DNA from: a virus
Reading direction: 5' to 3' (one strand)
Length of the DNA: 64,000 nt
IMG/VR virus record: IMGVR_UViG_2716884766_000001
Span: 1-64,000 of that record
In this document: piece after piece, positions 33,201-50,275 of the stretch
How positions within the stretch are numbered: position 1 is the first letter of the stretch
Layout of the letters: each line of letters starts with the position of its first letter
Program-made: the position numbers and the translations under genes
Notes under the pieces: generated by a model
Databases searched by the model: none
What the model saw: only the letters and a program-made list of their open reading frames with translations
What the model was told of the DNA's origin: nothing

Positions 33201-33906
33201 CATACAGAGTAGCATCTTCGTCAGCAGTTATAATTCTTTCTTCTACCTTTAGACCAACCTTGTATGATGGAGTATTAGAATACTGATCTAATACAAGTGT
33301 TTGTTCTTGTACAGGTACAAAATATCCACGAACAAAATATACACCTTTACCTACGTTAGCAGTAGACCCTGTTGCTGTACTATTAGAGTTAAGTAACTGA
33401 GCAAGAGGTGTACCAGCTACGATAGTAGATGTACTGTAAGTTATATCTTCTTCACAAGTTAATATTTCGCCAGCTTGGAATACACTGGTTGAGTTGTCAT
33501 CTGCTTTTGTTAGATATGTCAAATAAAATGACACATATCCACGAGTAGATTGTGTAGCACTAATAGAGAAATTGACTCTAGCACGGATGTTTGAAGTGGC
33601 ACCCTTCACAACCTTGCCATTAAGTGCTTCTCTGTATAATTCTACAGGTAAGTTAAGATAATTATTTTGAACTAATACTACTGGATAATTTCTATTCAGC
33701 GTGATACCGCCAGGTACCACCATACTACCTTCCTTGTAGACACCTTGACCAAATGTATCAATTTGGTTTTGTAAAAGTGACTGGAGGGTAGTAAGTTCTC
33801 TTGCCTGTACTGGAAAGCCAGGTTTAAATAATACTTTTAGAAATCCCTTATCATCATCGAAATCGTCGAAATAAGGAGATATATTCAGGTTAGTATTCTG
33901 TGCCAT
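27217..33906 (-). CDS. VrlC-like / DUF4815 virion structural protein (2229 aa)
   Basis: N-terminus NLNISPYFDDF...VLFKPGFPVQARELTTLQSLLQNQI; APGADR; DRFKNGFIVDNF; DPLAQTF; LFKSQNASTWT; follows gp8 as in cyanomyoviruses. Confidence 0.85.
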   Translation of the reverse strand: MAQNTNLNISPYFDDFDDDKGFLKVLFKPGFPVQARELTTLQSLLQNQIDTFGQGVYKEGSMVVPGGITLNRNYPVVLVQNNYLNLPVELYREALNGKVVKGATSNIRARVNFSISATQSTRGYVSFYLTYLTKADDNSTSVFQAGEILTCEEDITYSTSTIVAGTPLAQLLNSNSTATGSTANVGKGVYFVRGYFVPVQEQTLVLDQYSNTPSYKVGLKVEERIITADEDATLYDNAIGSTNFSAPGADRFKINLSLVKKNLADPNSADFIELLRTNIGAIENKVERSDLGFINDVLATRTKEESGDYYVKRFSIDVRENLNDAFNNGVYTADQITQDGNVPVEEHLAVQISPGTAYVSGYRTEKLANTFKDVVKPRTFAAADSQSISSDFGNFVRITNLYGGVQLYDTIELRNRKISSGGSAPGGAIGQARVFGFSFDTGDRNTTSTVYQVNLADIDLYTNIILTGSVNMVSGKKYVGMSSGATGYSRTNGSASNILFEGVTGTFIHNEQIALDEAPSAAIGTIHNAANDGVTDYQFTDCKSFYKSGFTADLILDVQAPVAANAPVLSGQSSNTTATLTASLSNFVSQLRINDILAFSNNNLSHEVRVTSITNSGQIAIERVTSNNIANGAINGDIILLRGQIREAQKRTLISPIPKAAVKSTSTNSSGSAVAPLGYFRKTYSVSVTGGAFSLSAGSNLTFRDVTDGDDFQVIATAGTNAGTSYTVGSGISTTSSPGDASASITGLNSGTSAAIVIATVYSSNRTAKAKTTELMRVLRIDHTSGTTANGLTQTTAGYGHRLEDKQISLGCPDVFKLKAVYESADDADPEIPNLQYSNLIGTLEVGQILTGASSGAKAQIVNFNSTTVFYVMLNDNSFTGDENISTPTASGKITVGTIRVGSNNITSSYELDNGQREQYYDYSRIVRKAGYAAPTRRILVIFDRFQTTSGDGFYSVDSYSSEDYKEIPTFGEIPLRNGLDFRPMVPDKISGSGTRQSPYLLTDNEYFDFSNRAFTGNLVGIPGQADTTILSYEYYLGRIDKVGINKDSKIVIIKGEPSETPVEPSDPEDAMLLATLEISPYVFDVDQDVVITQTNYKRYTFRDIQTLEMRIKTLEYYTQLSLLEAETATFAVRDSNGMDRFKNGFIVDNFASLATSDTFHPDYRVSVDFEEGHLRPAHYTTNLPLIVSSTSQNIQQTGDLITLPYNDIVLVDQPYASALENVNPFNVFTFIGDIKLTPASDDWVDTKSLAAIQGPVVEGNYMTSLRSFNADQNGITPIQWGSWQTTWSGAVQQTRQVTTGKGKRRRTRTEVFTRIRTDQTRSGIRHKITPVIEQQSLGNKVVSVEHIQNMRSRNIEFKGEKLKPKTRFYPFFDGVDIKAFVTPKLLEVTKNPTDDADTNSTPFQVGETVKGLTSGCSLRILEPNDNYTVNPYTNVNISSVSDYTANLGWINLDTSALAAQALGAYSGNPIPNEILVGQSSGAKAKVKERKLITDPAGFIKGTFFIPDPSKATNPKFKTGTRIFRLSDTVNDSQVQGESESSAQTEYAATGILQTTQETIISVRNAQIDEQKFTQNRTLWSDPLAQTFLIQDENLEGGVFLTKIDLFFQQKDFEIPVAIDIRTVENGTPTQTIVPFSKVIKQAKDVVTSTDASTPTTFTFESPVFIGHQQEHAIVVTSDSNQYKVFISLLGEDAIDAAHAGEKISEQPYIGVLFKSQNASTWTPSQFEDLMFKIYRADFTLPTTLSQSKVILNNATLEENNGGFISALPNAIATTDDNTYIDVFHSNHGMQSSLNYVVMSGVKSEVGDTTLKVALAASGVSQITLIEAGNFHVCIGGNASQAASLSAASGNIGPGNSAPAVSDTNPGFLKIGDEIIAYENINTGSPDWVVDIVGHNAGSVSGRNWDPVTNSGAATGTAHILGATVECYNLAGIPLTKINGTHHTSTFGGLTTLNSPHKYRLNITGVKAHKTLTAGGDNVSISQNIPWDVLTPSIQTQAQPGCSISARALGTSGTSSGPFPAGYTAETSFVKDTTFRDITLNDINYFLATKVIASKQNEISNMSGGKSLDLELNFFSDVTHLSPVVDTQRMSVTTTANLINNAAPTSGIGDENAAIYITRLARLDNSATGVKVAMAANTFEFSTIQVMYKLVPVGYTGDPDDLNFEFFNTDGRPDSGLMVPQNDPFVFGDFEYTLDDAPAYDGFQLKIVLKNYNQPYIPRVKDLRIIALA

Positions 33907-35429
33907 TAGAATTCAATTACTACTTTGAGCTCTTCGTTTTGATCCGCAGATCTTGTTATTGGGTTCCTATTGTCTATGTAGAGGATTTCTCCAGAGTTGA
34001 TTTCAACTTCCCCGTTAGCATATCCTTCGATAAATGACAGTCCTAATTCATAGACAGAAACACCGATAGTGATTTGAGTCAAAGGTACTGAAGATGTACC
34101 AAAGTTCGCATCAGGTGTAGCAGTTACAATATCAGAAGATGTAATTTCATAATTACCCGCAAATTCTACGACGTTACCAGAGGTGACACCATCATTTGAA
34201 TCTTGATAGTATCTCATCACTTTAGTTGTAGAGTCATAAGAAACAACGTATCCTTTCGCACCTGTTGTGGTTTGAGTGATAGTTGTGCCAGGTGAAAATG
34301 TTCCACTAGGTGTACCAGTTCCAGACTGAGGGAAGATCAATGCTTTTACAGCAGACCTTGTGTTCTGATCTGAAATAGAGGTTGTATTATAATCAAATGG
34401 ATTAAGAACCAGACCAACTCTACGGAATGTAAGGTCAGTTGGGAAATCTACAAATGCTGTTGATGTTTCTAGTTTAGAAGCAAACATGAGACGGTAAGCA
34501 CCTATCTCTCTTGTAGCATCTGAACCATGTCCACCGTTAGGAGGAATGATGATATCGAGAACAGCACCCGATCCACCAGAACCGATGTTAGGAATCAATC
34601 CTACATCTATTGTTGCGAAACTATAGTTAGAACCTGAGTTAGTAACAGTAACGTTAACAACAGATCCAGACTCTACAGTCACAGAACAAAAACCTTGAGT
34701 ACCACCATTTATTTGCCAGTCACCACGAATAGGTACGTTGGTGTAGGTATCATTATTATATCCTTGACCTTGATTCTCGATAACAACTGTATCAATAGAA
34801 CCAGGTCCAGCAGCAGCCTGTACTAAACTATTCTCAAGTACAGGTATAAACTCTGTAGTAACAAATTTTAGAATATTATCAGCATCAATAGTATACATAT
34901 ACTTCCAACGATACTTGTACTCAGATGAGTCGTTGGTTTCAATAACTGTTGTTGATGTTCCTGTTGGTTCAACCAGTGAAGGTCTACCTCTAGGATATGT
35001 GGGAGACTGACCGTTGTACAAACACTTGTACACGTTGAAGTCAGAGTTCATCACATAAAAGTTTGAGTCATATAAACGAGTAGCACCATTAGCAGTAGTT
35101 TTAGCAGGACTATAGTCAGGTTTGTACATGGAATATGTACGACCAGTTCCACCAGTAGTCTCTGTCGGGTCTATCCAATCTACTCTAGGTACAACGAGAG
35201 AGGTATCAGTAATGTCTACTCTCTTAAACGCAACTGAATCTGCATATGCTAAACGATGATAGGTGAAACTATCAATAGGCTCGTTAGTAGGTGGAGAATC
35301 AGGTGAACCCCATTCTTTAGCACGTCCAACAAACAAATACACTTTATTTGCGTCCGAGCCAGTACTACCGAGAGTGTTGCGAAACGCTTCGGCTGCGTAA
35401 ATTCTAAATTTATCGGTTACAAGTGCCAT
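33906..35429 (-). CDS. gp8: Baseplate wedge subunit gp8
   Basis: YLFVGR..W, VPRVDW, FYVMNSDFNVYKCL, YRWKYMYTI, PPNGGHG, GEILYIDNR.PITR...Q.EELKVVIEF. Confidence 0.9.
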   Translation of the reverse strand: MALVTDKFRIYAAEAFRNTLGSTGSDANKVYLFVGRAKEWGSPDSPPTNEPIDSFTYHRLAYADSVAFKRVDITDTSLVVPRVDWIDPTETTGGTGRTYSMYKPDYSPAKTTANGATRLYDSNFYVMNSDFNVYKCLYNGQSPTYPRGRPSLVEPTGTSTTVIETNDSSEYKYRWKYMYTIDADNILKFVTTEFIPVLENSLVQAAAGPGSIDTVVIENQGQGYNNDTYTNVPIRGDWQINGGTQGFCSVTVESGSVVNVTVTNSGSNYSFATIDVGLIPNIGSGGSGAVLDIIIPPNGGHGSDATREIGAYRLMFASKLETSTAFVDFPTDLTFRRVGLVLNPFDYNTTSISDQNTRSAVKALIFPQSGTGTPSGTFSPGTTITQTTTGAKGYVVSYDSTTKVMRYYQDSNDGVTSGNVVEFAGNYEITSSDIVTATPDANFGTSSVPLTQITIGVSVYELGLSFIEGYANGEVEINSGEILYIDNRNPITRSADQNEELKVVIEF

Positions 35430-35449: not shown

Positions 35450-35457
35450 TATTTATA
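35450..35457 (-). promoter_or_regulatory. T4 late promoter TATAAATA upstream of gp8
   Basis: Plus strand TATTTATA at 35450-35457, overlapping the gp7 stop codon. Confidence 0.8.
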
Positions 35458-38400
35458 CTGTATAAACACGGATAGTTGGAAGGATCTCCATTGTACCCGT
35501 TGCTGTCAAAGATACTGGTAAAGATATGCTGAACGCAGTGTCACTCGCACGAGTAATCTTATACGTTCCATTTAATGATCCTGTAGGCCAATTTCCAATA
35601 GCAGATGTAAATCTGATGAATCTCTCCATACCAGTTTGGAGATTATGATTAGAACCCATTGTGATCACACAGTTAGTTCCACTACTATTGAAGTTTCCAG
35701 ATTCAGGTCCGTTAGCGTAACCAAATCCAAGAGCAGTTCCTGTATTTTTGAATCCTCTACCGTTTGTAGTAACAGTAAATGTCTCTGCTGCGTAATCTAC
35801 AGAACCATATAAGATTCTTTCACAACCCCATGTTGATGTTGAGGCATTCCAGAAAGGAATTAACAACTCACCGTTAGTTGGGAATCCAACTCCATTATTA
35901 TAGTATGCGTCAAGAACAGGAATAGTAGCAGTCTGCTGACCGATAGCACCAGTTAATTGTGTGGTGTATAGGAATGTACCATTAGATACTGCTCTGTCTC
36001 TCTGTGTCCTCTCTAAAGCGATTGGATGATATGGTGTGACAGAAGGAGGAGTATTGTAATTAGAACCACCTTTTAGGTTCTTGATGCCAATAACTCTACC
36101 ACTACCTTGCTCAATAATAGTCTCAGCAAATGCTCCAGATCCACCGCCACCACTAAAGATTAGGAATGGGGCAACCTCATAGTTAGATCCAGAATCAATT
36201 ATATTGACTTGTACAACAACACCGTTAACTACAACAGATTGGAATATAGCAACATTCGGTTTTAGACCTGTATACTCATATGTATCTAAGGAGGAAGAAC
36301 TAGCAATAGTAGCAAGTCTTCTGATGTCTCCTTCTGACTGTACCTGTAGTAAGTCGCCAGGATCAAGAGCAGAATATGTATCCTCAATTACAATATCAAG
36401 ATCAGAACCAGTGTAGATGTATATTAATACTTCACTACCAGCTCTAGGTGCTTCACTAAACTCAAGAATAGAACCATCCAATGTGTATGATACTTCAGGT
36501 TCCTGATAAACACCGTTCAAGAACATGATAAGGTTGTTAGCAGGGATAACCTGAGTAGAATCAGATTCTAGTGAGAATGGTTGGTCATTCTTCTTAAGTA
36601 TGAATGTCTTCTTCGTACCGTTCATGAATGGTGCGATAGAGTCCATATCTTGTAACTGTCCCACATAGAAACAGTAGAAGTCCATATTACCCTTTGGTGC
36701 TTCAGTAAAGTTAATTGTAGAAGGTGTGCCAGAGTAACTATATGCTGTACCTAACTCCTGTATGTGTGAGTTCAAGAATAATAGGAACCTGTCGTTAGCA
36801 GGAAGTGTATATCCTGATCCACCTACAGTAGCAGCAAAACCAGTTGTTGTTCCGTTGAATGTAACTGTCTCTACTTCAACTTGGAATGAGTTACCCACTG
36901 TACCACCTACGTCAGCAGCATCTACACCAAGTACGTCTGTGTTCTTATATCCGTCTCCACCACTGACTAAGCTTACACCTGTAACAGCACCTGTAGTTCT
37001 TGCTATAGGAGCACTGAGTGTACCAGCTGCTGTAGAAGCACTACCACCTGTGAGAGATAAGGTAGGTGTAGAAGCATATCCTACTCCTGTCTCTTGTACG
37101 ACTATTCTTTCTAAATGTCTACCTACAATAGCAGCTGCGGTAGCAGTTGTAGTTATTGTGTCGGCAGGATTCGCAATAATCTCAATAGTGACATCGTTAT
37201 ATCCAAATCCACCTTCATCAACTGTAATACCAGTGAGAGCCCCACCAGACACAGTAGCGGTAGCAGCAGCATTAAACCCAGTCTTTGATGTAATCTTAAC
37301 TGTTGGTACATTAGTATATCCGACTCCTCCGACGATAATTCCGATTGATTTGACATAACCTCTTTCTGCTAATACTGGTACATAGGATCCTGCTGTTGTT
37401 GGAGATCCACCAGAGATCTGAACTGTAGGAGCTGTCTCATATCCATCACCATGATTACCAACTGTTCTAGTTATACCAGAGAAGTTACCTTGGTTCAAAG
37501 CTGTATATGCTAGATCCATCAAGGTATCAACAGTTGCTTGTACAGCAGTACACGCTTCTCTAACTCCATAACCTTGCTTCACAGCATTAGGAGTAGCACT
37601 CAAGAATGTATGTGTATAGTTTCCACCAATAGTAAGAGCATTGGTTAGAGATGATGAGTATACATGTGTTGAAGCATTAGTAGCAGCAATACCAACGTTA
37701 ACTGTAATCCTGTCAATAGAAGATCTTACAATACTTAATGGTTGATCATATGCCTGATCCTTCTTCTGTTTCAATCCATTTGATGTAGCAGATACGAAAG
37801 CATGTGTTGTTGTGTTTGTAGAAGGTATAAAGTCTAATACTCTAACTTTAAATGTATCTGTGGTTACATTTCTAATCCTTAACCATTTGCCACTCACAGG
37901 GTCTGTAGAACGTGGATATGTATGGTTACTACCATTACCATCCTCAGCACAAGTAAAGGTCAATGAGTCATCGTCAAACTTAACGTAGTCACCCTTTCTC
38001 ATAGAGTGCCCAACTACAGTAACTACCATGTCACCGTCAGCAGGAGTGTATACAGCGTTGGTGACTGTGTGGTTGACTATATCTGTTCTTGGATATGAGT
38101 GAGTAGAACTGCTACTTCCTGCTATACCAACGTCAACTGTAATAGTTGTTGCTGATACTGCTGTGATTGCTTCAGCAACACCTGATGATGGGTCGCTAGC
38201 CCTAGGGTATGCATGATTAGTTGCGTGATTATCAGCAGCACAAGTAAATGTAACTGAATTATCAGCAAAGGTTACTGTGTTAGATGTGGTCAAACTATGT
38301 GTACCTATCTCAACTTCCATAAGACCTGTGAGTGGATCATAGGTTGTACCTGTCGCTGCTGTGAATGTTCCTGACGCTCCATTACCCGCTGTGATACCGT

Positions 38401-41400
38401 TTGTAGTACCAGATACGAATGTGTGAGTTCCAACTGCAGCATCACAAGTAAATGTGATACCACCATCAGAGATCTTAAGAGTTGTGCCTCTAACATGTAG
38501 ATTATATGCTACTGCTGCCTTGAATATGTGATCAGTTGTGTTAGTAGATGGAGCTGTGTTTAATACTTGTACTTTAAATGTATTTCTAGTTACATCTGTA
38601 ATAGGTTGCCATAGTTCACTGATAGGATCACTGCCTCTAGGATAAGCATGGTCACTAGCATGACTATCTTCCTGACATGTGAAGATAAGTGAGTTGTCAT
38701 CTATGATAATCTCATCTGTAGGTGTCAAACCATGATTCTCACAAGTTACAGTCATGATACCTGTAGTAGGATTATAGTCAGCACTGTCTATGCTGAGTGT
38801 TCTTTCAGATCTTAGTCCATGAGGTATAACAACAGCACCAGTAACAGCAGTTTGGAAGGTATGAGTATGTCCACCACCACTCTGTACAGCATCATTAGCA
38901 ACATAACCTGGTTTCCATCTGTGAGTAGATGTATTAGTAGATGGTGTAGAACTTAATGACTGGATAGTTATAGATGTGTCTGTAACAGCAGTAATTGTTA
39001 GAGCAGCTCCACTAGCAGGGTCACTAGGTCTTGGATATGAGTGGTCTGTCTGATAGAAGTCCATCAAACACTGATATACAAGAGAGTTATCTGTAATTGT
39101 AATAGCATCACCAACCTTGAGGATGTGATTGCCGATAGTTAACTCAACAAGACCTGTAACTGGATCGTAGTTTGAACCTGTGACAGTATGATTGACTAAA
39201 GGACTAGGTCCTACGTTAACTGTGATTGTATTATTTGTCTTCGCAATAATCTTAAGTGCTTTATCATAGAATGGATCTTTTCCAAATCTAGGATACATCT
39301 TAGTAGCATTGTTACCGTCCATTGAGCATTTGAATCCCAATGACTCAGGTCTGAACATAATCTCTTCACCTATCTCCATGCTGTGTGAACCAATGTTCAC
39401 TGTCATAGAACCTGTATTAGCATTATAGGTAGCAGCAGATACATTGAACTGTGTGTTATAGACTTCCATGTCCATATCACCAGTAGCAGGGTCATAGGTG
39501 GCATCTGTAATCTGATAGTTTACAGTAGGAGACTCTCCGACATACAATGTGATCGTAGTTCCTGTCTTAGAAAGGATAGGAAGTGACTTACGGTATGCCC
39601 AGTCTGTAGATCTAGGATATTTGTGATGTGTAACACTACCATCTTGAGCACACTTGAATGTCAATGACATATCATCAAGTTTAACTCTTGTTCCTACCTC
39701 TAGACTATGAGATCCTATTGTTATCTCTACTTGTCCTGATGTGGCAGTGTATACAGCGTTAGTTACGTTGTACTGAGTAGCATCAGTGCTCTGATATGCT
39801 GTAATTGTAGGATCTTTATACTGTGACTTGTCTGTAAGGTTAAGATGTGAGTATGTCTCGAATGATTCCTGTTGTATTGCCTTCAATACCATCTGACGTG
39901 CTTCTTCAAACACATAAAGTGTCTCTGCCTCTTCTCCTGCCACATGACTTCCTACGAAATACATGTTCAGTGTGTCATATAGAGTATGGTTACCACCATA
40001 TGCCACGTTAGTAGCAACTGCGTTCAATACATCTCTTGTATCAGACTTACATTGTCCATCACCCAAGCCAGGTGCGTTAAATCCAGTAGGAGCAGTCCTC
40101 GTAAAGGCACTCATAGTGTTAGTATCTACTGCTACCTCGACAATATTCATTAAAGTGTGTATTGTTGCTCTAGCACTAGCACATTGATTATCAGACCTAG
40201 TAATACCACCATCATACTTCTGTATCTCACCGTGATCACCAACTACAGTCACCGCTTCGTTAGCAATAACCTGTCTGGCTATCTTGTCAGCCTCACGGAA
40301 GGCATAAATCGTATGAATCTCTTCACCTGCTACATGAGCACCATCAACATAGTACTTGGCAGCATCGTATACCTCACTATTACCACCAAACTTAGCATTG
40401 ATAGCAACTGCCTCTAATACATCTCTTACATCATCAACACAGTCCTCATCATTGCCTGTTGGTTCTACAAATAGAGTTGGTTCTGTCTTATTGACATGGA
40501 TCATCAAGTCAGTATTGATAGCAGTAACAACAATATCAACAAACGTACTGATAGCGGACTTAGCACTAGCACAGCCGTCGTATATGTAAGTAACGTCTTC
40601 AAAGTATTGTTCATAACCATGATCTCCTGCGATTGATACTGTCTCATTCAAGATTACCTTGTCCATCAGACCTTTCATCTGATTAACAGCTGCTATTGTC
40701 TGCTGTTCTTCACCTTGTATTACACTACCAGAACTATATGCTGATGTGTAGTAGAAGGAAGCATCATATACCTTATTATTAGCACCAAATAGTAAGTTGA
40801 AAGCAATCGCTTCCAATATATCCATCAAGTCATCTCTACAGTCTTGTTCTGTGTATCCCTGAGCATGTGTATAACCAGGATAGTCAATAGTCTTGAATAG
40901 GTAGTATGCTTCCCAGACAATAAAGTCTTTGTTTGCCATAATCAAGTTATAGGCATCAAAGTGTCTCTTGTTAGCAATAGTATATGGTATATCAGCATGC
41001 ATCCTATCCACTGCTTCTCTAGCAATGAAGTCCTTATTCATTAAGATAAGGTTAGCTGCGTCTGCTACCTTGTTATCTACAGGTGTACCATACTTATTCA
41101 TCAGTCCCACAGCAATGTCTGCTATGACTCCTGCGTTGTTGTCAATCAGTGTTCTAGCATCAGCATATTTGTTATCGGTGACAAAAGTAGCACTATCGAG
41201 GACATTTGTTACAACTATGTTACCAGTTGCCCCCGATCCGTCTGATAATTTGTTAGTGAATGGAACGTTGTTGTATGTACCCGCAGTATAGCCTGTACCT
41301 TGATATACTCCATCAGTTGTATTCAGGGCGGTGATAACATCACCAAACTGATCTAACTGGAAGTTTCCAGATATATCAGATCTCTTGAAGTACATTATGA

Positions 41401-44400
41401 TAACTGATGAGTTCCTCATTGGAGGTTCTAAGAATGTTATCGTACTGCCTGAAAGAGTGTATGATGTAGGGTTCTGTACAATACCGTTGATAGTAACCAT
41501 CAACTGATTCTTATTTGTAGGTACAGTTGCTGTACCTCTAGTTCTTAACTGGAAGTTTCTATTAACATCATCAAATTCTACAGTTAGTTGATGCTGTGAG
41601 TCTGTTGATAGTGCTGTAATGTCTACAGTAGTATCAGCAACACCAACATTGATTGTTACATCATTACCAACTACATTAGTGATTGCTAGTGGTGTGTTGT
41701 AGGCAGGGTCTGTTGAACGTGGATAAGCATGAGTAGTAGCATGGTTATCTCCCGCACAAGTAAAGGTAAAGGCACCTAATCCTAATGTAATTGTATGACT
41801 GGTAGTCATTGTATTACTAGAAACTGTAAATGTTAGGTCACCTGTTACGGGGTTGTATGTCGCAGCAGAAGGTGTGCCAGTAAATCCATTACTACCTGTG
41901 ATTGGTAAGGCACTTACAAATGTATGAACAGATCCACCTGTTGTGGTAGATAGTTTAAAGTTATCATCATCTACACGAGTGACATAGTACGTACCTACTG
42001 GTAAACCACCTAGAGTTATACCTTCTCTAACATAAGGATAGTTACCTACATTCTGAGTTGGAATGTTGCCTGGATTGTCAATCGCATCCCAAACAATTTG
42101 AGCTAACACAGTTATAGCAGATTGTACATCAGCACATCCACCAGGATCTTGTGTGATTGTGACATCAGTGAATGGTAATAGGTTTTGAATTGCTTGTATG
42201 GCTAAGTCTCTAGCATACTGTATAGCAGCTATAGTCTCAACTGTCTCACCAACGATATAGTCTATAGCACCACCAACAACATAAGACTCAGCAGCATCTA
42301 CAGAGAATTTGTTACCACCATAGCGTAAATCATTACACCATGCGATAACTATAAGTCTTAGGTCTCTAGCACATGTGTCTGCGTTGTAATCTGGTTTAGT
42401 ACCATCAGTTAAGTTAGGATAACTCTGCTCTAACCATGTAATAGTAGTAGCAATGATATAATCTAAGTTGCCTAGTATTAAATTACGGGCATCTTGGAAT
42501 CTATCACCTTGTACAAGGTAAGATACTCTCTGATTTGATATTAGTCCGTGGTTGGCAAATGTAATCTGCTCATTTGATATATCTACGACATTACTATCTG
42601 TACCATTGAAGGTAATAGTCCTCTCATTGATAGGATCCATCTTATCAACAACAGCAGATAATATCTTTCTAACGTCAAGTAACTGTTTACCAACAACCTG
42701 AATGTTAGTTGGAACTGTTGCTGTGTAATCTGGTTTACCAAGTACAAAGTTCTCGATACGAGCTAACTTACCTGTGTTAGACGCGGATGGTTTAGGTACA
42801 AAGAAGGTTGTGCCATTAAATGACTTATTCTCATCACCAAATCTTTGTTCCCACCAGTCATTAGGATCTGGATTAGCACCATTGTAATATGATCTACGTT
42901 GATATCTCTTAAAGGCTGATTGTGATACGACCTGTGTACCTAATACCCTGAAACCAGCTGGGTGAGCAGAATTCTTAAATTGGTTCTTCCAGTCCCGTAC
43001 GTTGATTGGCGAGTTGACCACGTATGAGAACTCTTGGTATCTGTCACTATCGTATAGACGCTGATCGTTAAGATCAAGTATACCAGTAGTACGCTTAAAC
43101 TCAGCAGTAGCAGTGGCAATAGGTGATACAGTAAAGTTAGCGACTGATCTGTCAAAGTCATGTATTTCTCCAAAGGCATTAGACTGTAAACCGAAGACTG
43201 GTTGGTTAAGAGCAAACTCTCCTACCTCTACTTCAACAGATAGGACTCTACCTTTAGAATCCCATGCTTTTACTATACCCTGAGCAGAGAATGAAGCTAC
43301 AGATGAACCTTGATATACTTTCTCACCGATAGCAAATGACGCAGGAGTCATTGATACAGTAATCTGATCTCCTAAGTCTGTGGTTGTTAGGTTAAAGGTT
43401 GCTGTTCCTCCACTACCAATAGAAGGTTGACCTGTTATTGTTATTGATGATCCTGCCAAAGCATTTGCTAGTGTTGTTGCCATCTTGAGCTGGTTACTAG
43501 CAAGACCATTAGCAAGTGAAGGTGCTATAGCATAATATGTGACATTTGCTTGAAGAGGAGCTGGTAATGTACCATCTATCTCTAATAATTGTACTTTTGT
43601 ACCTAAAGGTATCTTAGTATCGTATGGGAAGTTAAGTGTACTGTTAGATTGTAGAGGAACGAATGAGTGAGTAATTCTTGCTTGTACAGCAGGAGTAGAT
43701 GAGTAACCTCTACCTGCATTTGCTATTGTAATTGCCTGAATAACTTCGTTGTCAATAATAGCATCCATAACGGCACCGCTTCCACCTCCACCAATGAGTT
43801 CGATGGTTGGTTTGGTAACGAAGGATCCACCACCGTTTGTAACAGTGAAGAAGTCAACGATTTGAGTTCGTGTGAGCTGTAAATTATAGTTTGTATTAAC
43901 GCTTGGTTTGAGGGTTCTATCATGACTGTAATTGTACGTGATATTGTCTCCACCAAGACTGATGATCTTACCTAGATCACTAGACTTGAGTAGTATGGAA
44001 GCACCATTTCCTGTACCCTGCTTAACTGTAATAATAGGAGGATTTTGGAATCTAGTTCCTGCGTTTTCAATAACAATAGAACTTACAGTCTCATCTATGA
44101 TCTCAGCACGTAGTACAGCATCTATACCTGTACCACCAGAGATCTGAACTTCAGGAGCAGATAAGAAACCTGATCCAGAGTTAGATACAATAACCTGATC
44201 AATAGAAGCATCTATAGTTGTACCTGTGACTGCCTTACGAACAAAGTCAAGTGAGTCAACTCTAAGAACAAAGTCATCTGCTGAACTACCACCTGTAATA
44301 TCCTCACCACGAATAGTAATAAGGTCACCTAGTGAATAGTTTGCTCCACCCGCTAATACATTAGCAGTTGTTACGTCTTGATTGGACGCAGAAATGATAA

Positions 44401-47400
44401 CTTGAATTGATACCCCACTACCACCTGTAGGAGCTACAGATTCCTGTGATACGGTATATGTACCTGGCGTAAAGTTAGCAGAACTATTCTGACTATTGAC
44501 GCTAAGAGTAGCTACACCACCGTAGTATGGGTCATCAATAAAGATTTCAGGGGCAGTACGGTAATTACTACCTCCATCACCATTTATAGCTATATTACTT
44601 ATAGTTCCTATCTCAGGACCTGATGAAGGAACGATAGCAGCAACGTTTGCTTGCTCACCACCAACTGCTGTTATTTTTGCTTGGTTTGATCCTGCGTATA
44701 TCTTATTAGTAGCAGCAATAGCAGTGGTAAACATGATGAAACCACGAGTAGCAGCACCTGGTAGATTATTACGTAATGGTTGTACTCTAAGTGTAGATGT
44801 ATTTGGATCCCAACTGATTACCTTACCTCTAGCAGTATCACCGTCAAGAACTAACTTAGATGCTATAACGTCACCTGGATTAAAGTCACCAAAGATCTCA
44901 TCTAGTGTCAAATCTACAAAGTCTGGCATAGAGCAGACAACAGCAGGAGGATTAGCACCATCATATCCAATACCCGCTTCTAATACTGATACGTCTTCTA
45001 GTTTACCTGAGATAGTAGCAAATGCTTGAGCACCACCACCTGACCTTTCTACACCTGTAAATTTAGGGAATGTAGAATAGTTTCTGCCTGGATCACCTAT
45101 GTTGATACTAGCAATACCACCTGAAGGGAATATAGAGTTAGTAGAGTATGAAATCAGATTAGCAGCTGTATAGTTATTCTCTGGTTCTCTTGCTAATATA
45201 AAGTTAATTGTAGTTGTAGTAGGAATTGCTGTGACTGTGTTCGCTCCTAGGAATGGATCGTTAACTACGCTCAGGTAGCTACCAGATACACCACCATTGA
45301 TATCAAAGTAGAATAATGTGCCAGGTACATCATCTAGTGATATAGTAATTGATATTTGTTCTCCTGTAACTGGATCATTCTCTGATCCAACAATATTTTT
45401 ATATGTGAATACATTAGTATTCTCTTTATCAAAGGTAAACTCTAGTCTCTTACCAGTATTAGATGAGTCAGTGGTGTTAAACTTATAAAGGTGACCGTTG
45501 ATAAGATCTAACTTAGGTTCTTTGACATACACTACACATGCTGTAGTAATAGCAGTATCAGTTATAATACCAACTGCTTTCTTGAACTGGAATCTTCTTC
45601 CTGTGCTTATACCTGTAACTGTGAACGTACCATCATAGTCAACTGGGTTAGTTCCTGTAATAATAACCTCATCACCTATCTTCACTTGATGGGCAGCTGT
45701 ACCTCTAGCAGTAAACTCTTGATTTATCTTACTAGGAGTGATGTAGAATCCATTAACACCACCAATATCGCTAGTAACAATAGGATCTAACTGCTCATTG
45801 TTGTAGTAACCACTACCTTCCTTTGTTAGAGTGACAGATGTTACCTCACCACTATTACCAACGACAATAGTAAACTCAGCACCTTCACCTGAAGAGGCAG
45901 AACTATTAGCAAGAGGAACGTTAGTATATGTGCCAGGTGTACCACCACTACCAGCTAACATTGTCCATTCATCTTGTACTATACCACCAGTCTTTTTGAC
46001 ATTACCAATATCTACAGAGAAGTTTTGACCTGTATTACCAATATTAGAGATATTGGCAGTTAGTACATCTCCATTGCTGTAATTCTTACCTGTATTCTGT
46101 ATAGAGACAGATGTGACCGTATTTCCACTTACGATGATATCAGCAGAAGCATTTTGCCCTGTACCGCCAATTAGAGGTACATTCGAGTAATTACCATCTG
46201 TGAGTCCTGTACCGCCAGTAATCGAGATATTAGCTTGTAATATCCTACCCTTTGAACTAATGATGAAATTAGTCAAATCAAAGTATTTAAAGTGATATTT
46301 GTCGTTTACAACCTTTACATCAATCTCACGGGTGTATTGGTTGTCTCCAATCGCAATATCAACACTATCGCCAATTTTTAAGAAATGATCAGTCGCTGTA
46401 GTGATAGTTCCAGTAATTACGTCTGTAGTCGAGTTTACAGAAGAAACAATCGCAGATGTGCCAGATCCAGAGATTTTAGACACTCTAGCGGAAACACCAC
46501 TTCCTCCAGTGCCTGTTTCGTCAAATATGAGTCTATCGTTAACTTTATAGTTGAAACCTGGACCTTCGATCAGATATTGGTCTAATCCACTTGAGAAGTA
46601 CCTATTTGTCGCAGATACGAATAATGAGTCAACAGAACCACCCTGAATGCTTGGGAAGAAGTCAAAGTACCCAATACCGACAGTTACGAAGCCAATGAAG
46701 GATTCATCGTTTTCTAAGACAATAGGAGTCGTAGAATCTTCCATAGCGAGTATATACTCGACTGGGTTGCCTTTATTCTTTCTTCTTACTAATGCTGTGT
46801 CTGTAGCAACATATGGACGTTTATAGCGAACTGCGTCTTCTGTAAAGTTTCTTTGGAGTCCATTTCCCTTCCAGTTGACATCTTCTGCCTGAGAGTAGTA
46901 ATTAGGTCCTACAAAGTAAGGAAACTTCGGATTTCCAGTTGTTCCGTCTAATGCTGTGAAATATGCGTATATACCAGCTGGATATTCGGGAGTTACGCAG
47001 AATCGACCATTATACTGATCTAAGTCGCCTAATCCTTCAACATATTCGTAATCTTCGATATATGTCCCCATCTTGTCGATTTGTGCCAAATCATTACCAA
47101 CTAACGCATCTCTTTCCGTTCTGATGCGATATGAGCTGATCATTTGCTTGATCTGGTTATATGGGTTCTTATTCTCTCTATCTGCGTATCCGTAAGGTCC
47201 GTAAATGGGATGTCCGTCAAATGACCATCCTAAGATCGGTGAATGCCTTGTTGGGTTTAATTCTGCGTATGTTGTGTCACTTACGTTATCTCCAAGTAAG
47301 AAACGCAACTTTTTGGGATTATATAAGTATCCGTACTCTCCACCATAGATTCCGAAGTTAGCACCTTTGATTGATACACCATTATTACTATCTGCTATTT

Positions 47401-50275
47401 TAGGTGATACAAACAGTGGATCTCCGACTTCATCCGCACTAGCAGCTAAGTTCTGCGTCAATATAGGTAATTCGACTTGGAAGGTAGCTCCAGAACCAGG
47501 ATACACGATATCAACAGTTGTTATACCAGAAGTGTAACCTACACCTCCATTAGTGACTGTAATACCCGTAACTTGCTGTGTACCAGAATCTATACTCGCA
47601 AAAGCAACCGCACCGACTCCATCACCACTAATAACAACGTCAGGAGCACCATAGTAGTTACTACCACCAAATGTCAAGATAATAGATACAATCTTACCAT
47701 TTACGATAGATGGGTAAGCAACAGCACCAGATCCAGATACTAGAGTGATATTTGGTCTTTGATTGTAGTTTGTACCATTGTTTGTGATTGTTATGCCTTC
47801 AGCTTCTAATCCACCACGAACAACCGCTGTACCAGTCGCACCTTGTCCACCACCACCAGATATTACCACTGTAGGTATAGATTGGTATCCTGAGCCAGGT
47901 GCGGACACGGATATAGCAGTTACGACTCCTGCGGTGATTGTAGCAGTCGCAGATGCTTCAACTGTAGGACTTCCACCCACAATACCAACTGTAGGAGCTT
48001 CCGTATAACCAGATCCTCCGTTTTCTACGTTTACCGCAAATAATGAACCAGATACGCTTACAGTAGCTTCAGCAGACAATCCTTCGTATTCCCAGAGGCA
48101 ACCACCGTCTTGTACTGGATCTGGAGTTGTATGTGTAGGTTCTTGTCCTAATTCTGCGGTTTTACCGCTTCCTAAGTTCTTATATCTGTATCCTAGACTA
48201 TTTCTGATTCTTTGGTTAAGAAAGAAGGATGTACCCTTTCTATGGATTGGTTCAAACTCTACAATCGGTGGATTAGTGATATCATACCCAGATCCCGCAT
48301 TTAGAACCGTAATTGACTTTACACCACCAAATAGTTTCGTTTCTACTGATTTATAGGAGAACATTGGTACTCCATTCACAGCAAACCCAACTTGACCCAC
48401 AGGAGTCGGAGTTTTGATAGATTTAGTAGTTGTTTCGAGAGGAATGCGTTTTAGATATCTCTGGTTGCCAGGATCTAGGTCTCCGCTGCCAAAAGGTCCT
48501 ATTTCATGACCAGGTACACCTGGTGACGCAATTATCGCATATTCTGAAGATCTGTAGACATTCTGTACATCAGATGGTGTATCCTCTAATCCTAAACGTA
48601 TAGATGTGTCAACTGACGTAGTTTTCGCAAATTCACGTGTAACTAGGAATGGTACGTCCACACCACGGATAGGAGTGCTAGGAATTAAGATACTAAACTC
48701 AAAATTGTTACTTACACCAAGTACAGTGAATGATGAGTTATATACGTCCTCTGGAGCGTTCAAAATGACAACTCTGTCTTCTCTTCTTAATCCGTGCTCT
48801 TGTTCAGTCGTAATATTCGCTACAACACTACCATCTGCCTTCGGAACGTCTAAAACTAGCAATGTTCCGTTTAGGAGCTTCTTAACGTTGTATACGAAGC
48901 TTTCCCAGATAGGATCTAACGCATCAAAGCCTGGTTCTGATGGTGTGGTGACTTTTGAGTCTTGTAAGTAATATTTACCGCCACTTACGATGTCTATTCC
49001 TCTTGTACCGCCAAATACCTTTAAACTGATCTTAGATTCGTCTCTATTGCTGTATCCAAAGATTTCATAGGAAGAAGTTACCTCAGATCCTGCAATATGG
49101 GGTGCATTGACTGTATCTTGTCTCGCACGGGTACATCCTAGGAACTGGGTGACTGTTTTGTCTGTATAGTTGATAATCTCGTCATCTATACGAATAGAGC
49201 CGTTCTGTTCTGGCCATCCAATAGTAGAGTCGACTGTTACGACGTTTTCCGTAAGGTTAGAACTTAGATCTTCAGAAAGGAGCGTTTTATACGGAGTTGT
49301 GAAACTTCCATCGCCATTTTCCGTATCTACATCTAATTCATAGATCTTTCCGTCTTCGGTAAACACCTCAACTACGGATTTTACGTATATACGTGCGGAA
49401 TTGACAAGAGGGTCGTTTGGATCGTTCTCTTGGAATAATACTTCACCTGTAAGTTCCACAGGGTTTCCGCTTATCGCTGTAGCACGAATAATCTCCCTTA
49501 CAGTGTAAAATGCGTCACTAGGTTTGAATATTCTTTCTTTAGGGTACTCAATAACTGCTTCTACACCAAAGAGCACTCTCATCAAGTACTTAAATGACCT
49601 TGATGTACCTTTAGCAGCGTAAAAGTCCTTAAGACGCTTAGTAACTGTTGATTGTTGGATTTGGGGGTCAAACTTAGAAGGGAATGACTCAGCAAACTGA
49701 TCTCTGAACCTCTGTAGTAAGAATAGAGGTAAAAGGTTGTTTAGGTTGACTACTGTAGCACCAAAAGCATGTGTAGCTGCTACAGATGTTGAAAATGTGT
49801 ACTCTGATAGTAAACCTATCTTGGTAGTGGCATGAAATCCTCTAACACACTCTTGAAACTGTGTTTGGGACTTACTCTTGTAGTATATGATCTCTTCGTC
49901 TATCATTAAGAGACCTTCCTTTGGAAAATCTCTAGTATTTCCTACGTCAATGACTGTTGAGTCTAAAGTCACCCCAGAGGACGCTGTAGTCGACTCTACG
50001 AGGTCATTTAGCTTGTCTATGTTATAATATTCATCTATGTTCTGTATTATGTCAACAGGGTTACCCTTTAGTTCAAGTGATTTAAAGTAATACTTGACAA
50101 ATTGTATAAAGTCAGGATAATCCTCTTGGATAAACTGAGGCATTTGCTCCTCAAGTCTATCCGAGACTTTAGATTTAGATTCTGGCGAAACCGAAGCGTC
50201 AATCGGGTCAACTGTGACCTCAGTTTGAGGTGTGACCCACGACGCAACTCTCCACGACGACTGCTCAGCTGGCAT
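35453..50275 (-). CDS. gp7: Baseplate wedge initiator gp7, greatly expanded (4940 aa)
   Basis: Lies between gp6 and gp8; QMPQFIQEDYPDFIQFVKYYF, KDFYAAKGTSRSFKYLMRVLFG and DSDRYQEFSYVV...HPAGF core motifs; also a split YHYH-like domain and nested repeats. Confidence 0.88.
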   Translation of the reverse strand: MPAEQSSWRVASWVTPQTEVTVDPIDASVSPESKSKVSDRLEEQMPQFIQEDYPDFIQFVKYYFKSLELKGNPVDIIQNIDEYYNIDKLNDLVESTTASSGVTLDSTVIDVGNTRDFPKEGLLMIDEEIIYYKSKSQTQFQECVRGFHATTKIGLLSEYTFSTSVAATHAFGATVVNLNNLLPLFLLQRFRDQFAESFPSKFDPQIQQSTVTKRLKDFYAAKGTSRSFKYLMRVLFGVEAVIEYPKERIFKPSDAFYTVREIIRATAISGNPVELTGEVLFQENDPNDPLVNSARIYVKSVVEVFTEDGKIYELDVDTENGDGSFTTPYKTLLSEDLSSNLTENVVTVDSTIGWPEQNGSIRIDDEIINYTDKTVTQFLGCTRARQDTVNAPHIAGSEVTSSYEIFGYSNRDESKISLKVFGGTRGIDIVSGGKYYLQDSKVTTPSEPGFDALDPIWESFVYNVKKLLNGTLLVLDVPKADGSVVANITTEQEHGLRREDRVVILNAPEDVYNSSFTVLGVSNNFEFSILIPSTPIRGVDVPFLVTREFAKTTSVDTSIRLGLEDTPSDVQNVYRSSEYAIIASPGVPGHEIGPFGSGDLDPGNQRYLKRIPLETTTKSIKTPTPVGQVGFAVNGVPMFSYKSVETKLFGGVKSITVLNAGSGYDITNPPIVEFEPIHRKGTSFFLNQRIRNSLGYRYKNLGSGKTAELGQEPTHTTPDPVQDGGCLWEYEGLSAEATVSVSGSLFAVNVENGGSGYTEAPTVGIVGGSPTVEASATATITAGVVTAISVSAPGSGYQSIPTVVISGGGGQGATGTAVVRGGLEAEGITITNNGTNYNQRPNITLVSGSGAVAYPSIVNGKIVSIILTFGGSNYYGAPDVVISGDGVGAVAFASIDSGTQQVTGITVTNGGVGYTSGITTVDIVYPGSGATFQVELPILTQNLAASADEVGDPLFVSPKIADSNNGVSIKGANFGIYGGEYGYLYNPKKLRFLLGDNVSDTTYAELNPTRHSPILGWSFDGHPIYGPYGYADRENKNPYNQIKQMISSYRIRTERDALVGNDLAQIDKMGTYIEDYEYVEGLGDLDQYNGRFCVTPEYPAGIYAYFTALDGTTGNPKFPYFVGPNYYSQAEDVNWKGNGLQRNFTEDAVRYKRPYVATDTALVRRKNKGNPVEYILAMEDSTTPIVLENDESFIGFVTVGIGYFDFFPSIQGGSVDSLFVSATNRYFSSGLDQYLIEGPGFNYKVNDRLIFDETGTGGSGVSARVSKISGSGTSAIVSSVNSTTDVITGTITTATDHFLKIGDSVDIAIGDNQYTREIDVKVVNDKYHFKYFDLTNFIISSKGRILQANISITGGTGLTDGNYSNVPLIGGTGQNASADIIVSGNTVTSVSIQNTGKNYSNGDVLTANISNIGNTGQNFSVDIGNVKKTGGIVQDEWTMLAGSGGTPGTYTNVPLANSSASSGEGAEFTIVVGNSGEVTSVTLTKEGSGYYNNEQLDPIVTSDIGGVNGFYITPSKINQEFTARGTAAHQVKIGDEVIITGTNPVDYDGTFTVTGISTGRRFQFKKAVGIITDTAITTACVVYVKEPKLDLINGHLYKFNTTDSSNTGKRLEFTFDKENTNVFTYKNIVGSENDPVTGEQISITISLDDVPGTLFYFDINGGVSGSYLSVVNDPFLGANTVTAIPTTTTINFILAREPENNYTAANLISYSTNSIFPSGGIASINIGDPGRNYSTFPKFTGVERSGGGAQAFATISGKLEDVSVLEAGIGYDGANPPAVVCSMPDFVDLTLDEIFGDFNPGDVIASKLVLDGDTARGKVISWDPNTSTLRVQPLRNNLPGAATRGFIMFTTAIAATNKIYAGSNQAKITAVGGEQANVAAIVPSSGPEIGTISNIAINGDGGSNYRTAPEIFIDDPYYGGVATLSVNSQNSSANFTPGTYTVSQESVAPTGGSGVSIQVIISASNQDVTTANVLAGGANYSLGDLITIRGEDITGGSSADDFVLRVDSLDFVRKAVTGTTIDASIDQVIVSNSGSGFLSAPEVQISGGTGIDAVLRAEIIDETVSSIVIENAGTRFQNPPIITVKQGTGNGASILLKSSDLGKIISLGGDNITYNYSHDRTLKPSVNTNYNLQLTRTQIVDFFTVTNGGGSFVTKPTIELIGGGGSGAVMDAIIDNEVIQAITIANAGRGYSSTPAVQARITHSFVPLQSNSTLNFPYDTKIPLGTKVQLLEIDGTLPAPLQANVTYYAIAPSLANGLASNQLKMATTLANALAGSSITITGQPSIGSGGTATFNLTTTDLGDQITVSMTPASFAIGEKVYQGSSVASFSAQGIVKAWDSKGRVLSVEVEVGEFALNQPVFGLQSNAFGEIHDFDRSVANFTVSPIATATAEFKRTTGILDLNDQRLYDSDRYQEFSYVVNSPINVRDWKNQFKNSAHPAGFRVLGTQVVSQSAFKRYQRRSYYNGANPDPNDWWEQRFGDENKSFNGTTFFVPKPSASNTGKLARIENFVLGKPDYTATVPTNIQVVGKQLLDVRKILSAVVDKMDPINERTITFNGTDSNVVDISNEQITFANHGLISNQRVSYLVQGDRFQDARNLILGNLDYIIATTITWLEQSYPNLTDGTKPDYNADTCARDLRLIVIAWCNDLRYGGNKFSVDAAESYVVGGAIDYIVGETVETIAAIQYARDLAIQAIQNLLPFTDVTITQDPGGCADVQSAITVLAQIVWDAIDNPGNIPTQNVGNYPYVREGITLGGLPVGTYYVTRVDDDNFKLSTTTGGSVHTFVSALPITGSNGFTGTPSAATYNPVTGDLTFTVSSNTMTTSHTITLGLGAFTFTCAGDNHATTHAYPRSTDPAYNTPLAITNVVGNDVTINVGVADTTVDITALSTDSQHQLTVEFDDVNRNFQLRTRGTATVPTNKNQLMVTINGIVQNPTSYTLSGSTITFLEPPMRNSSVIIMYFKRSDISGNFQLDQFGDVITALNTTDGVYQGTGYTAGTYNNVPFTNKLSDGSGATGNIVVTNVLDSATFVTDNKYADARTLIDNNAGVIADIAVGLMNKYGTPVDNKVADAANLILMNKDFIAREAVDRMHADIPYTIANKRHFDAYNLIMANKDFIVWEAYYLFKTIDYPGYTHAQGYTEQDCRDDLMDILEAIAFNLLFGANNKVYDASFYYTSAYSSGSVIQGEEQQTIAAVNQMKGLMDKVILNETVSIAGDHGYEQYFEDVTYIYDGCASAKSAISTFVDIVVTAINTDLMIHVNKTEPTLFVEPTGNDEDCVDDVRDVLEAVAINAKFGGNSEVYDAAKYYVDGAHVAGEEIHTIYAFREADKIARQVIANEAVTVVGDHGEIQKYDGGITRSDNQCASARATIHTLMNIVEVAVDTNTMSAFTRTAPTGFNAPGLGDGQCKSDTRDVLNAVATNVAYGGNHTLYDTLNMYFVGSHVAGEEAETLYVFEEARQMVLKAIQQESFETYSHLNLTDKSQYKDPTITAYQSTDATQYNVTNAVYTATSGQVEITIGSHSLEVGTRVKLDDMSLTFKCAQDGSVTHHKYPRSTDWAYRKSLPILSKTGTTITLYVGESPTVNYQITDATYDPATGDMDMEVYNTQFNVSAATYNANTGSMTVNIGSHSMEIGEEIMFRPESLGFKCSMDGNNATKMYPRFGKDPFYDKALKIIAKTNNTITVNVGPSPLVNHTVTGSNYDPVTGLVELTIGNHILKVGDAITITDNSLVYQCLMDFYQTDHSYPRPSDPASGAALTITAVTDTSITIQSLSSTPSTNTSTHRWKPGYVANDAVQSGGGHTHTFQTAVTGAVVIPHGLRSERTLSIDSADYNPTTGIMTVTCENHGLTPTDEIIIDDNSLIFTCQEDSHASDHAYPRGSDPISELWQPITDVTRNTFKVQVLNTAPSTNTTDHIFKAAVAYNLHVRGTTLKISDGGITFTCDAAVGTHTFVSGTTNGITAGNGASGTFTAATGTTYDPLTGLMEVEIGTHSLTTSNTVTFADNSVTFTCAADNHATNHAYPRASDPSSGVAEAITAVSATTITVDVGIAGSSSSTHSYPRTDIVNHTVTNAVYTPADGDMVVTVVGHSMRKGDYVKFDDDSLTFTCAEDGNGSNHTYPRSTDPVSGKWLRIRNVTTDTFKVRVLDFIPSTNTTTHAFVSATSNGLKQKKDQAYDQPLSIVRSSIDRITVNVGIAATNASTHVYSSSLTNALTIGGNYTHTFLSATPNAVKQGYGVREACTAVQATVDTLMDLAYTALNQGNFSGITRTVGNHGDGYETAPTVQISGGSPTTAGSYVPVLAERGYVKSIGIIVGGVGYTNVPTVKITSKTGFNAAATATVSGGALTGITVDEGGFGYNDVTIEIIANPADTITTTATAAAIVGRHLERIVVQETGVGYASTPTLSLTGGSASTAAGTLSAPIARTTGAVTGVSLVSGGDGYKNTDVLGVDAADVGGTVGNSFQVEVETVTFNGTTTGFAATVGGSGYTLPANDRFLLFLNSHIQELGTAYSYSGTPSTINFTEAPKGNMDFYCFYVGQLQDMDSIAPFMNGTKKTFILKKNDQPFSLESDSTQVIPANNLIMFLNGVYQEPEVSYTLDGSILEFSEAPRAGSEVLIYIYTGSDLDIVIEDTYSALDPGDLLQVQSEGDIRRLATIASSSSLDTYEYTGLKPNVAIFQSVVVNGVVVQVNIIDSGSNYEVAPFLIFSGGGGSGAFAETIIEQGSGRVIGIKNLKGGSNYNTPPSVTPYHPIALERTQRDRAVSNGTFLYTTQLTGAIGQQTATIPVLDAYYNNGVGFPTNGELLIPFWNASTSTWGCERILYGSVDYAAETFTVTTNGRGFKNTGTALGFGYANGPESGNFNSSGTNCVITMGSNHNLQTGMERFIRFTSAIGNWPTGSLNGTYKITRASDTAFSISLPVSLTATGTMEILPTIRVYTV
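37481..41173 (-). repeat. Three nested helical repeats enclosing a seven-copy beta-repeat tree in gp7
   Basis: Three consecutive N-halves (YADARTLI, VADAANLI, HFDAYNLI) then three cores (CRDD, CVDD, CKSD); seven F/Y-x-C...YPR beta units at about 37574-39787. Confidence 0.8.

Follow-up and report, generated by a model that had tools for sequence, protein, structure and literature searches.

Nested copies of one β-barrel module around a four-way hub in a gp7-like baseplate wedge protein of a cyanophage

A gp7-like baseplate wedge protein is encoded on the minus strand of a viral DNA stretch of 64,000 nucleotides (nt), positions 1 to 64,000 of IMG/VR record IMGVR_UViG_2716884766_000001, which was analysed as a whole and is referred to here as the window. 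Between 37574 and 39787, corresponding to amino acids (aa) 3497-4234 of this gp7 homologue, one small domain recurs inside copies of itself. The portion spanning aa 3502-4234 consists of seven copies of a module of about 105 aa with no residue left over, arranged as a root copy that encloses a hub copy, which in turn encloses four daughters, of which one encloses an additional copy and another is a circular permutant. With a probability of roughly 85%, the nest represents a true domain tree produced by repeated in-frame insertion of one β-barrel module into the connections of its own copies.

Seven copies of the module and a hub in five pieces

Each landmark motif of the module occurs exactly seven times in the nest region, and the sequence landmarks quoted in the original prediction of a four-way hub were each located once, on the minus strand and where that prediction had placed them. 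The hub, H, consists of five separate pieces, with lengths of 22, 7, 18, 11 and 46 residues. Daughter D opens with the closing strand of the module and is therefore a circular permutant, and a second permuted copy, Z, stands alone elsewhere in gp7, so that the permuted form exists by itself. A module profile hidden Markov model (HMM) of 106 positions was built from only the three uninterrupted copies B, C and E. In addition, an unsupervised peeling procedure was applied, in which full-length matches to the standard or the rotated profile were excised and the search repeated with no prior parse. Peeling yielded the tree S[e:S[a:S[e:S] b:S c:P d:S]], identical to the parse listed below, with a complete copy lying in the loop of another and the host completed afterwards, which is the pattern of recursive same-family insertion. 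The copies and their pieces are listed below in protein order, followed by copy Z; all lie on the minus strand, and the letters a to f denote insertion sites whose profile positions are given with the family survey.

39527..39772 (-), aa 3502-3583: root R, piece 1, module strands 1-8; R joined scores 81 bits, full length
39461..39526 (-), aa 3584-3605: hub H, piece 1, strands 1-3; deletion costs 24 bits
39200..39460 (-), aa 3606-3692: daughter A, piece 1, at hub site a; module HMM and peeling
38876..39199 (-), aa 3693-3800: copy B, uninterrupted leaf inside A at site e; 110 bits
38828..38875 (-), aa 3801-3816: daughter A, piece 2, closing strands; A joined scores 72 bits
38807..38827 (-), aa 3817-3823: hub H, piece 2, conserved His-Gly-Leu between two inserts; deletion costs 18.6 bits
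38489..38806 (-), aa 3824-3929: daughter C, standard leaf at hub site b; 123 bits
38435..38488 (-), aa 3930-3947: hub H, piece 3, strands 4-5, ending in the invariant Cys; deletion costs 29.5 bits
38117..38434 (-), aa 3948-4053: daughter D, circularly permuted leaf at hub site c; rotated HMM 96 bits
38084..38116 (-), aa 4054-4064: hub H, piece 4, strand 6, invariant Tyr-Pro-Arg; deletion costs 20.6 bits
37766..38083 (-), aa 4065-4170: daughter E, standard leaf at hub site d; 145 bits
37628..37765 (-), aa 4171-4216: hub H, piece 5, invariant Asp, strands 7-10 and closing His; module HMM and peeling
37574..37627 (-), aa 4217-4234: root R, piece 2, closing strands; module HMM and peeling
41624..41941 (-), aa 2779-2884: copy Z, stand-alone permuted copy elsewhere in gp7; rotated HMM 86 bits

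Joined end to end, the five hub pieces scored 67.0 bits against the module HMM, with a match extending over positions 2-103 of 106. The controls reached at most 8.7 bits in 2000 random five-piece joins of the same lengths taken from elsewhere in gp7, and at most 10.9 bits in 1000 shuffles. Loss of any single hub piece lowered the score by 12-30 bits, and the native piece order was the top-scoring one among all 120 possible orders. The concatenated pieces thus make up a full-length module, the outcome on which the prediction of a discontinuous hub depended.

The module signature, comprising Gly16, His25, Cys44, Tyr55-Pro56-Arg57, Asp60 and His93 in profile columns, is present in full in the hub and is distributed across pieces 1-5. 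No substitution of the hub Gly, Cys, Tyr-Pro-Arg or closing His occurs in a set of 28 orthologues with identities of 52-93%, and the Pro-His-Gly in the piece of seven residues and the Asp that follows the fourth insert are likewise invariant. Judged from this conservation, selection acts on the hub as a domain.

An alternative is that the hub pieces are decayed remnants or linkers, with the daughters arranged as beads on a string and the pieces no longer forming one domain. Decay of this kind would be compatible with the hub being the most diverged domain between the orthologue groups with and without daughter D (64-68% identity, compared to 73-96% for the other copies), with its HMM score of 55-67 bits relative to 110-145 bits for the leaves, and with a median score that drops as the number of insertions rises. 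The same hub nevertheless matches the module over its full length with every piece contributing, and its signature residues, invariant in the 28 orthologues, are 96-100% conserved across the family in hosts with 0-6 insertions, those with multiple insertions included. The hub pieces are also modelled as strands at a pLDDT (predicted local distance difference test score) of about 65-86, and a single-barrel chain aligns over residues 89..721 of the structure model described below. Reduction of the hub to remnants is consequently regarded as very unlikely.

A whole daughter that differs between natural relatives

A protein search over 5.8 billion sequences returned gp7 orthologues that form a graded series, with 630, 737-740, 1146, 1256-1260 or 1357 residues enclosed by the same conserved flanks, equivalent to about 6, 7, 11, 12 or 13 modules. 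Exactly daughter D (106 codons) is missing from 20 orthologue cluster representatives of 73-86% identity, in which an ordinary consensus-like loop connects the invariant Cys of the hub to the Tyr-Pro-Arg. At the DNA level the two forms are related by a clean in-frame indel of 318 nt between flanks that are about 90% identical, with a few loop residues kept on each side. The junctions in the DNA alignment share only a 4-nt identity and are uninformative on mechanism. Forms with and without D are both found as intact open reading frames (ORFs) on dozens of independent metagenome contigs. More distant orthologues possess a hub with daughters at sites a, b and d, and carry a subtree at site e in place of D at site c. 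Orthologues P0012, P0013, P0019, P0021 and P0027 hold 11-13 modules between the same flanks, with deeper trees and more permuted inserts at site c.

The natural indel bears directly on a second alternative, an interleaved or strand-swapped topology in which the closing strands and the permuted copy complement their neighbours and no host of four complete daughters exists. Two consecutive closing strands cannot be assigned to their barrels from sequence alone, and D, which opens with a closing strand, could in principle donate that strand to a neighbour. The unit that is present or absent in nature, on the other hand, is exactly one closing strand plus strands 1-8, and its absence leaves the hub loop intact and the closing strand of the hub in place. 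The permuted form is also self-sufficient elsewhere, as copy Z stands alone in gp7 and 128 top-level permuted copies are found in the family. Furthermore, the residue ranges of structural alignments to the predicted model coincide exactly with the ends of the hub, the root and daughter A in the nested parse. A swapped arrangement is therefore considered improbable, and a hub bearing four complete daughters is preferred.

Local duplication was rejected as the source of D, which shows at most 46% identity to any copy in its own protein and 64-69% identity to permuted copies in other giant proteins, the latter being its nearest non-orthologous relatives. Daughters are gained and lost as whole units, most likely by recombination with genes of other cyanophages that carry the module and not through a local duplication; D is one such unit, and natural populations remain polymorphic for it. 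The distribution of D probably reflects recombination between co-occurring phages. Copy Z is also polymorphic, being present in orthologues of 4936-4940 aa and absent both from a 4834-aa protein that keeps D and from proteins of about 4730 aa that possess neither D nor Z.

Repeats can mislead assemblers and most of the relatives come from metagenome assemblies, so an assembly artefact or a dead gene was also weighed. The ORF is, however, uninterrupted over 4940 codons, the copies are 28-47% identical and as such too different for assembly collapse or chimeras, and near-identical full-length proteins occur on many independent contigs, leaving an artefact with a negligible probability.

Modelled alone from an 88-row alignment of diverse copies, leaf E was predicted to be a ten-stranded all-β domain, with a predicted local distance difference test score (pLDDT) of 95.6 and a predicted template modelling score (pTM) of 0.87. 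An AlphaFold2 model of the native 745-aa segment, calculated with the set of 28 orthologues, gave a pLDDT of 80.4 and a pTM of 0.59. Every hub piece bears the strands expected from the leaf model in this prediction, with block pLDDT values of about 58-86, and piece 4 is modelled as a strand at a pLDDT of about 70. The single-barrel chain 7lrn_B aligns over model residues 89..721, which are the first and last residues of the hub (Z 5.7, 79 residues aligned, root mean square deviation (RMSD) 3.9), 6l2u_B aligns over residues 4..744, corresponding to the root (Z 6.3, 86 aligned), and 5i4q_C aligns over residues 112..323, corresponding to A with B inside (Z 5.6, 69 aligned). Small single-barrel chains of the PDB align to the leaves of the native model as well. 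Because the two largest hub pieces add up to 68 residues, fewer than the 79 aligned, at least three of the five pieces would be located in one barrel, in line with the expectation that the hub folds from discontinuous segments of the chain.

Direct-coupling analysis of 1417 distinct copies (effective number of sequences, Neff, 918) independently indicated strand pairings of a barrel, with hairpins between strands 5-6 and 7-8, contacts of strands 3 and 4 with strand 8, and proximity of Cys44 to His93. Couplings that link columns 1-3 to columns 104-106 are probable artefacts of gaps and were not used as a sign of touching termini. Predicted structures of many cyanophage structural proteins match the leaf model with template modelling (TM) scores of 0.9-0.98.

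Several points weigh against a domain tree of complete barrels and the role proposed for it. The 79-residue match places at least three of the five hub pieces in one barrel, not all five, and the evidence for three-dimensional assembly of the hub consists of pLDDT values, predicted strands and the spans of residues covered by structural alignments. The native model was calculated from a shallow alignment of 28 rows and has a pTM of only 0.59, so that the relative placement of its seven barrels is unreliable. A tree of the flanking 1200 residues does not group the four D-bearing proteins in one clade, and this tree favours neither gain nor loss of D. The likeness of the fold to known barrels, namely those of an endosialidase and of the E1 FCCH domain, is middling (Z 7-8.2), with Pfam matches below threshold. 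These points notwithstanding, the HMM test, the conserved residues, the relatives that do not carry D and the model alignment together argue for a domain of about 105 aa bearing four daughters as a true branch point, as had been predicted.

Insertion sites and a site-topology rule across the family

A survey of 121 homologues recovered 1494 copies of the module, 1208 of them standard and 286 permuted, with 651 acting as hosts. No insertion was present in 843 copies, one in 456, two in 113, three in 54, four in 23, five in four and six in one. Peeling in the wider set proceeded for up to nine rounds, and the host with six insertions lies in P0090. The 962 insertion points cluster at six places, none of them within strands, and are listed here in the order of the profile.

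Site a: profile columns 21-24
Site b: profile columns 26-29
Site c: profile columns 45-49
Site d: profile columns 57-59
Site f: profile columns 71-76
Site e: profile columns 82-91

Four tight turns are essentially never used, namely those between strands 1-2, 2-3 and 4-5 and, with few events, that at strands 9-10. Sites a and b of the hub flank the conserved His within a single long connection. The four distinct sites occupied in the window hub equal the maximum seen in any host, the other four-site hosts being of the types abde, bcdf and bdfe. The suggestion in the original prediction that the fold tolerates insertion at nearly every surface loop was overstated, since three of the nine inter-strand connections of the leaf model contain the four hub sites and five of the nine contain the six sites of the whole family.

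Insertion sites differ in the topology of the inserts that they hold. Site c, directly after the invariant Cys, takes permuted daughters only (72 events in 37 clusters at 70% identity, compared to no standard daughter). Sites a, b, d and f together hold 471 standard daughters and a single permuted one, and site e takes standard and permuted daughters alike. The permuted copies are mostly each other's closest kin (97 of 120 sampled, compared to a 19% share of all copies). The site-topology rule may reflect geometry, descent with homology-guided transfer, or both.

In the arrangement proposed here, the hub (aa 3584-4216) would form a single ten-stranded barrel of about 105 aa from which the chain exits four times, each time building a complete daughter barrel and coming back. 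The exits would be located after strand 3 (site a), after the His-Gly-Leu (site b), after the invariant Cys (site c, occupied by the permutant) and after the Tyr-Pro-Arg (site d). The hub itself would occupy the strand 8-9 loop (site e) of the root, and the root would lie inside a helical gp7 module. Insertion may be tolerated because standard and permuted modules start and end at neighbouring points, and because the hub retains every signature residue, none of them more than a few residues away from an insertion point.

The His, Cys, Asp and His of the hub (aa ~3819, 3944, 4173 and 4204; columns 25, 44, 60 and 93) are each located a few residues from an insertion point. It is conjectured that the Cys/His/His/Asp set could act as a metal or polar clamp.

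Genomic setting, related barrels and proposed role

The window is part of the genome of a marine, T4-like cyanomyovirus, and its closest cultured relatives by DNA are the Prochlorococcus phages P-HM1, P-HM2 and MED4-213, with 66-69% identity over gp6-gp25. Very large minus-strand ORFs stand in a run within the window, and the ORF that encloses the nest is among them. The gp7 homologue matches the Pfam family Baseplate_wedge (PF23786) with 37.5 bits, above the cutoff of 27, and phrog_2885, 'baseplate wedge subunit', with an E-value of 2.5e-186. The gene order of gp6, gp7 and gp8 is that expected for a T4-type wedge, consistent with assignment of the protein as a T4-type gp7.

50278-52152: gp6-like gene flanking gp7, phrog_219 match
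35453..50275 (-): gp7-like baseplate wedge protein, intact ORF, Pfam and PHROG matches
33906-35429: gp8-like gene flanking gp7, phrog_438 match

The root copy sits inside a helical gp7 module with flanks at 39776-40135 and 37406-37573 (-). The two helical flanks, once joined, align to the helical module that precedes them, and this alignment (34% identity, E 1e-22) runs across the junction. Since the root copy is itself inserted in a helical module, leaf B lies five levels deep. A YHYH domain (PF14240, 92.9 bits) was identified in the N-terminal third of gp7 (~46946-47344 (-), aa 978-1110). The same phage encodes a 4471-aa ORF (3365-16780) in which eight copies of the module form another nest, four rounds deep, at 10040-12529 (-), aa 1418-2247 of that protein.

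The N-terminal and wedge regions of T4 gp7 match the cyanophage protein, and the gene is likewise located between the gp6 and gp8 homologues. T4 gp7, of about 1000 aa, is not known to contain such a module tree, and its cyanophage counterpart is nearly five times longer.

No Pfam family covers the module, and copy E of the window showed no match to the endosialidase β-barrel family PF12195 or to the FCCH family PF16190. Sub-threshold matches to these two families were present in 5 and 3 of 88 copies respectively, with best E-values of 0.013 and 0.0065, and PF16190 is annotated on some homologues of the module. A DUF4183 match (E 5.8e-4, below the cutoff) falls outside the nest. The module is covered by PHROGs 1276/5342/701. 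Searches of the module profile against PDB sequences returned nothing below an E-value of 0.1, and the only PDB sequence matches for a 781-aa region, to TAL effectors, were taken as spurious, being of low complexity with no accepted stretch. Foldseek against the PDB gave no match at E <= 0.001, with barrels of the FCCH/endosialidase type appearing at an E-value of ~0.02 and a TM score of ~0.5.

The best structural match to the module is the E1 FCCH domain (4p22_B; Z 8.2, RMSD 2.9, 80 residues), which is likewise a barrel inserted in another domain. It is a domain of a eukaryotic enzyme with ~16-18% identity to the module, and at this middling Z a shared shape does not imply homology. The endosialidase barrel of 4hiz_A (Z 7.0-7.7, RMSD 2.0-2.6, 77-78 residues) is a small all-β domain of a phage host-recognition protein and is itself inserted in the β-propeller of the K1F and phi92 endosialidases. 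This likeness does not imply sialic-acid binding by the module, and the endosialidase barrel family is not known to share the invariant Cys, Tyr-Pro-Arg and His that mark the cyanophage module.

The closest precedent for the architecture, by analogy, is the nested insertion in SI3 of the cyanobacterial RNA polymerase β' subunit (RpoC2), in which sandwich-barrel hybrid motif (SBHM) domains are nested up to six levels, with bifurcating nodes at which a single host holds more than one insert (PMC13114784; structures in PMC10895346 and PMC10120043). In both SI3 and the gp7 nest, small β domains are inserted in loops of copies of the same family. The two differ in that SI3 belongs to the polymerase trigger loop and the gp7 nest to a virion baseplate protein, and in that the gp7 host is of 105 aa with four inserts at four points, one of them permuted, within a tree that differs by whole domains between close relatives. 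SI3 or SBHM chains were not among the structural matches listed for the cyanophage module, which excludes no relation. A search of open-access papers and bioRxiv gave no earlier account of such nesting in a phage particle protein. The new elements are the hub with four daughters, the presence or absence of a whole domain in nature, the map of insertion sites across the family and the site-topology rule.

The module was found in structural proteins of 323 cyanophage records and is confined to cyanophage structural proteins. Together with its location in a baseplate wedge component and the number of modules, which varies between close relatives, this confinement suggests a surface-exposed and fast-evolving cluster. 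The tree would probably form a compact branched cluster of barrels at the periphery of the baseplate wedge, serving as multivalent surface decoration or as a glycan-binding adhesin, with the binding role itself suggested only tentatively. A purely structural or spacer role of the nest is judged somewhat less likely than binding.

Hosts with several inserted domains are uncommon, and a barrel of 105 residues with four inserts, one of the returning pieces being of seven residues, is an extreme case. With 1494 copies, 651 hosts and 962 events, the family constitutes a large natural insertion-profiling set that reports which connections of a barrel take whole domains and which never do. The coupling of insertion site to insert topology is of use for the design of branched or switchable fusion proteins, and the interest for protein engineering noted in the original prediction is accordingly reasonable.

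Gain and loss of whole domains as a mode of host-range evolution was not found described for phage particles in the same open-access papers and bioRxiv. With the same gp7 position holding 6, 7, 11, 12 or 13 modules in different relatives, proteins of the baseplate periphery appear to diversify by whole nested domains. As a possible generalization, put forward with some reserve, the module may be a self-compatible branching scaffold with a grammar of six points, one accepting permutants only and four accepting standard modules only. Cyanophages might then remodel their receptor-binding trees by whole-domain gain and loss through recombination between structural genes, with the Cys/His/Asp cluster, which might be a metal site, clamping the loop bases and thereby conferring an unusual tolerance to insertion.

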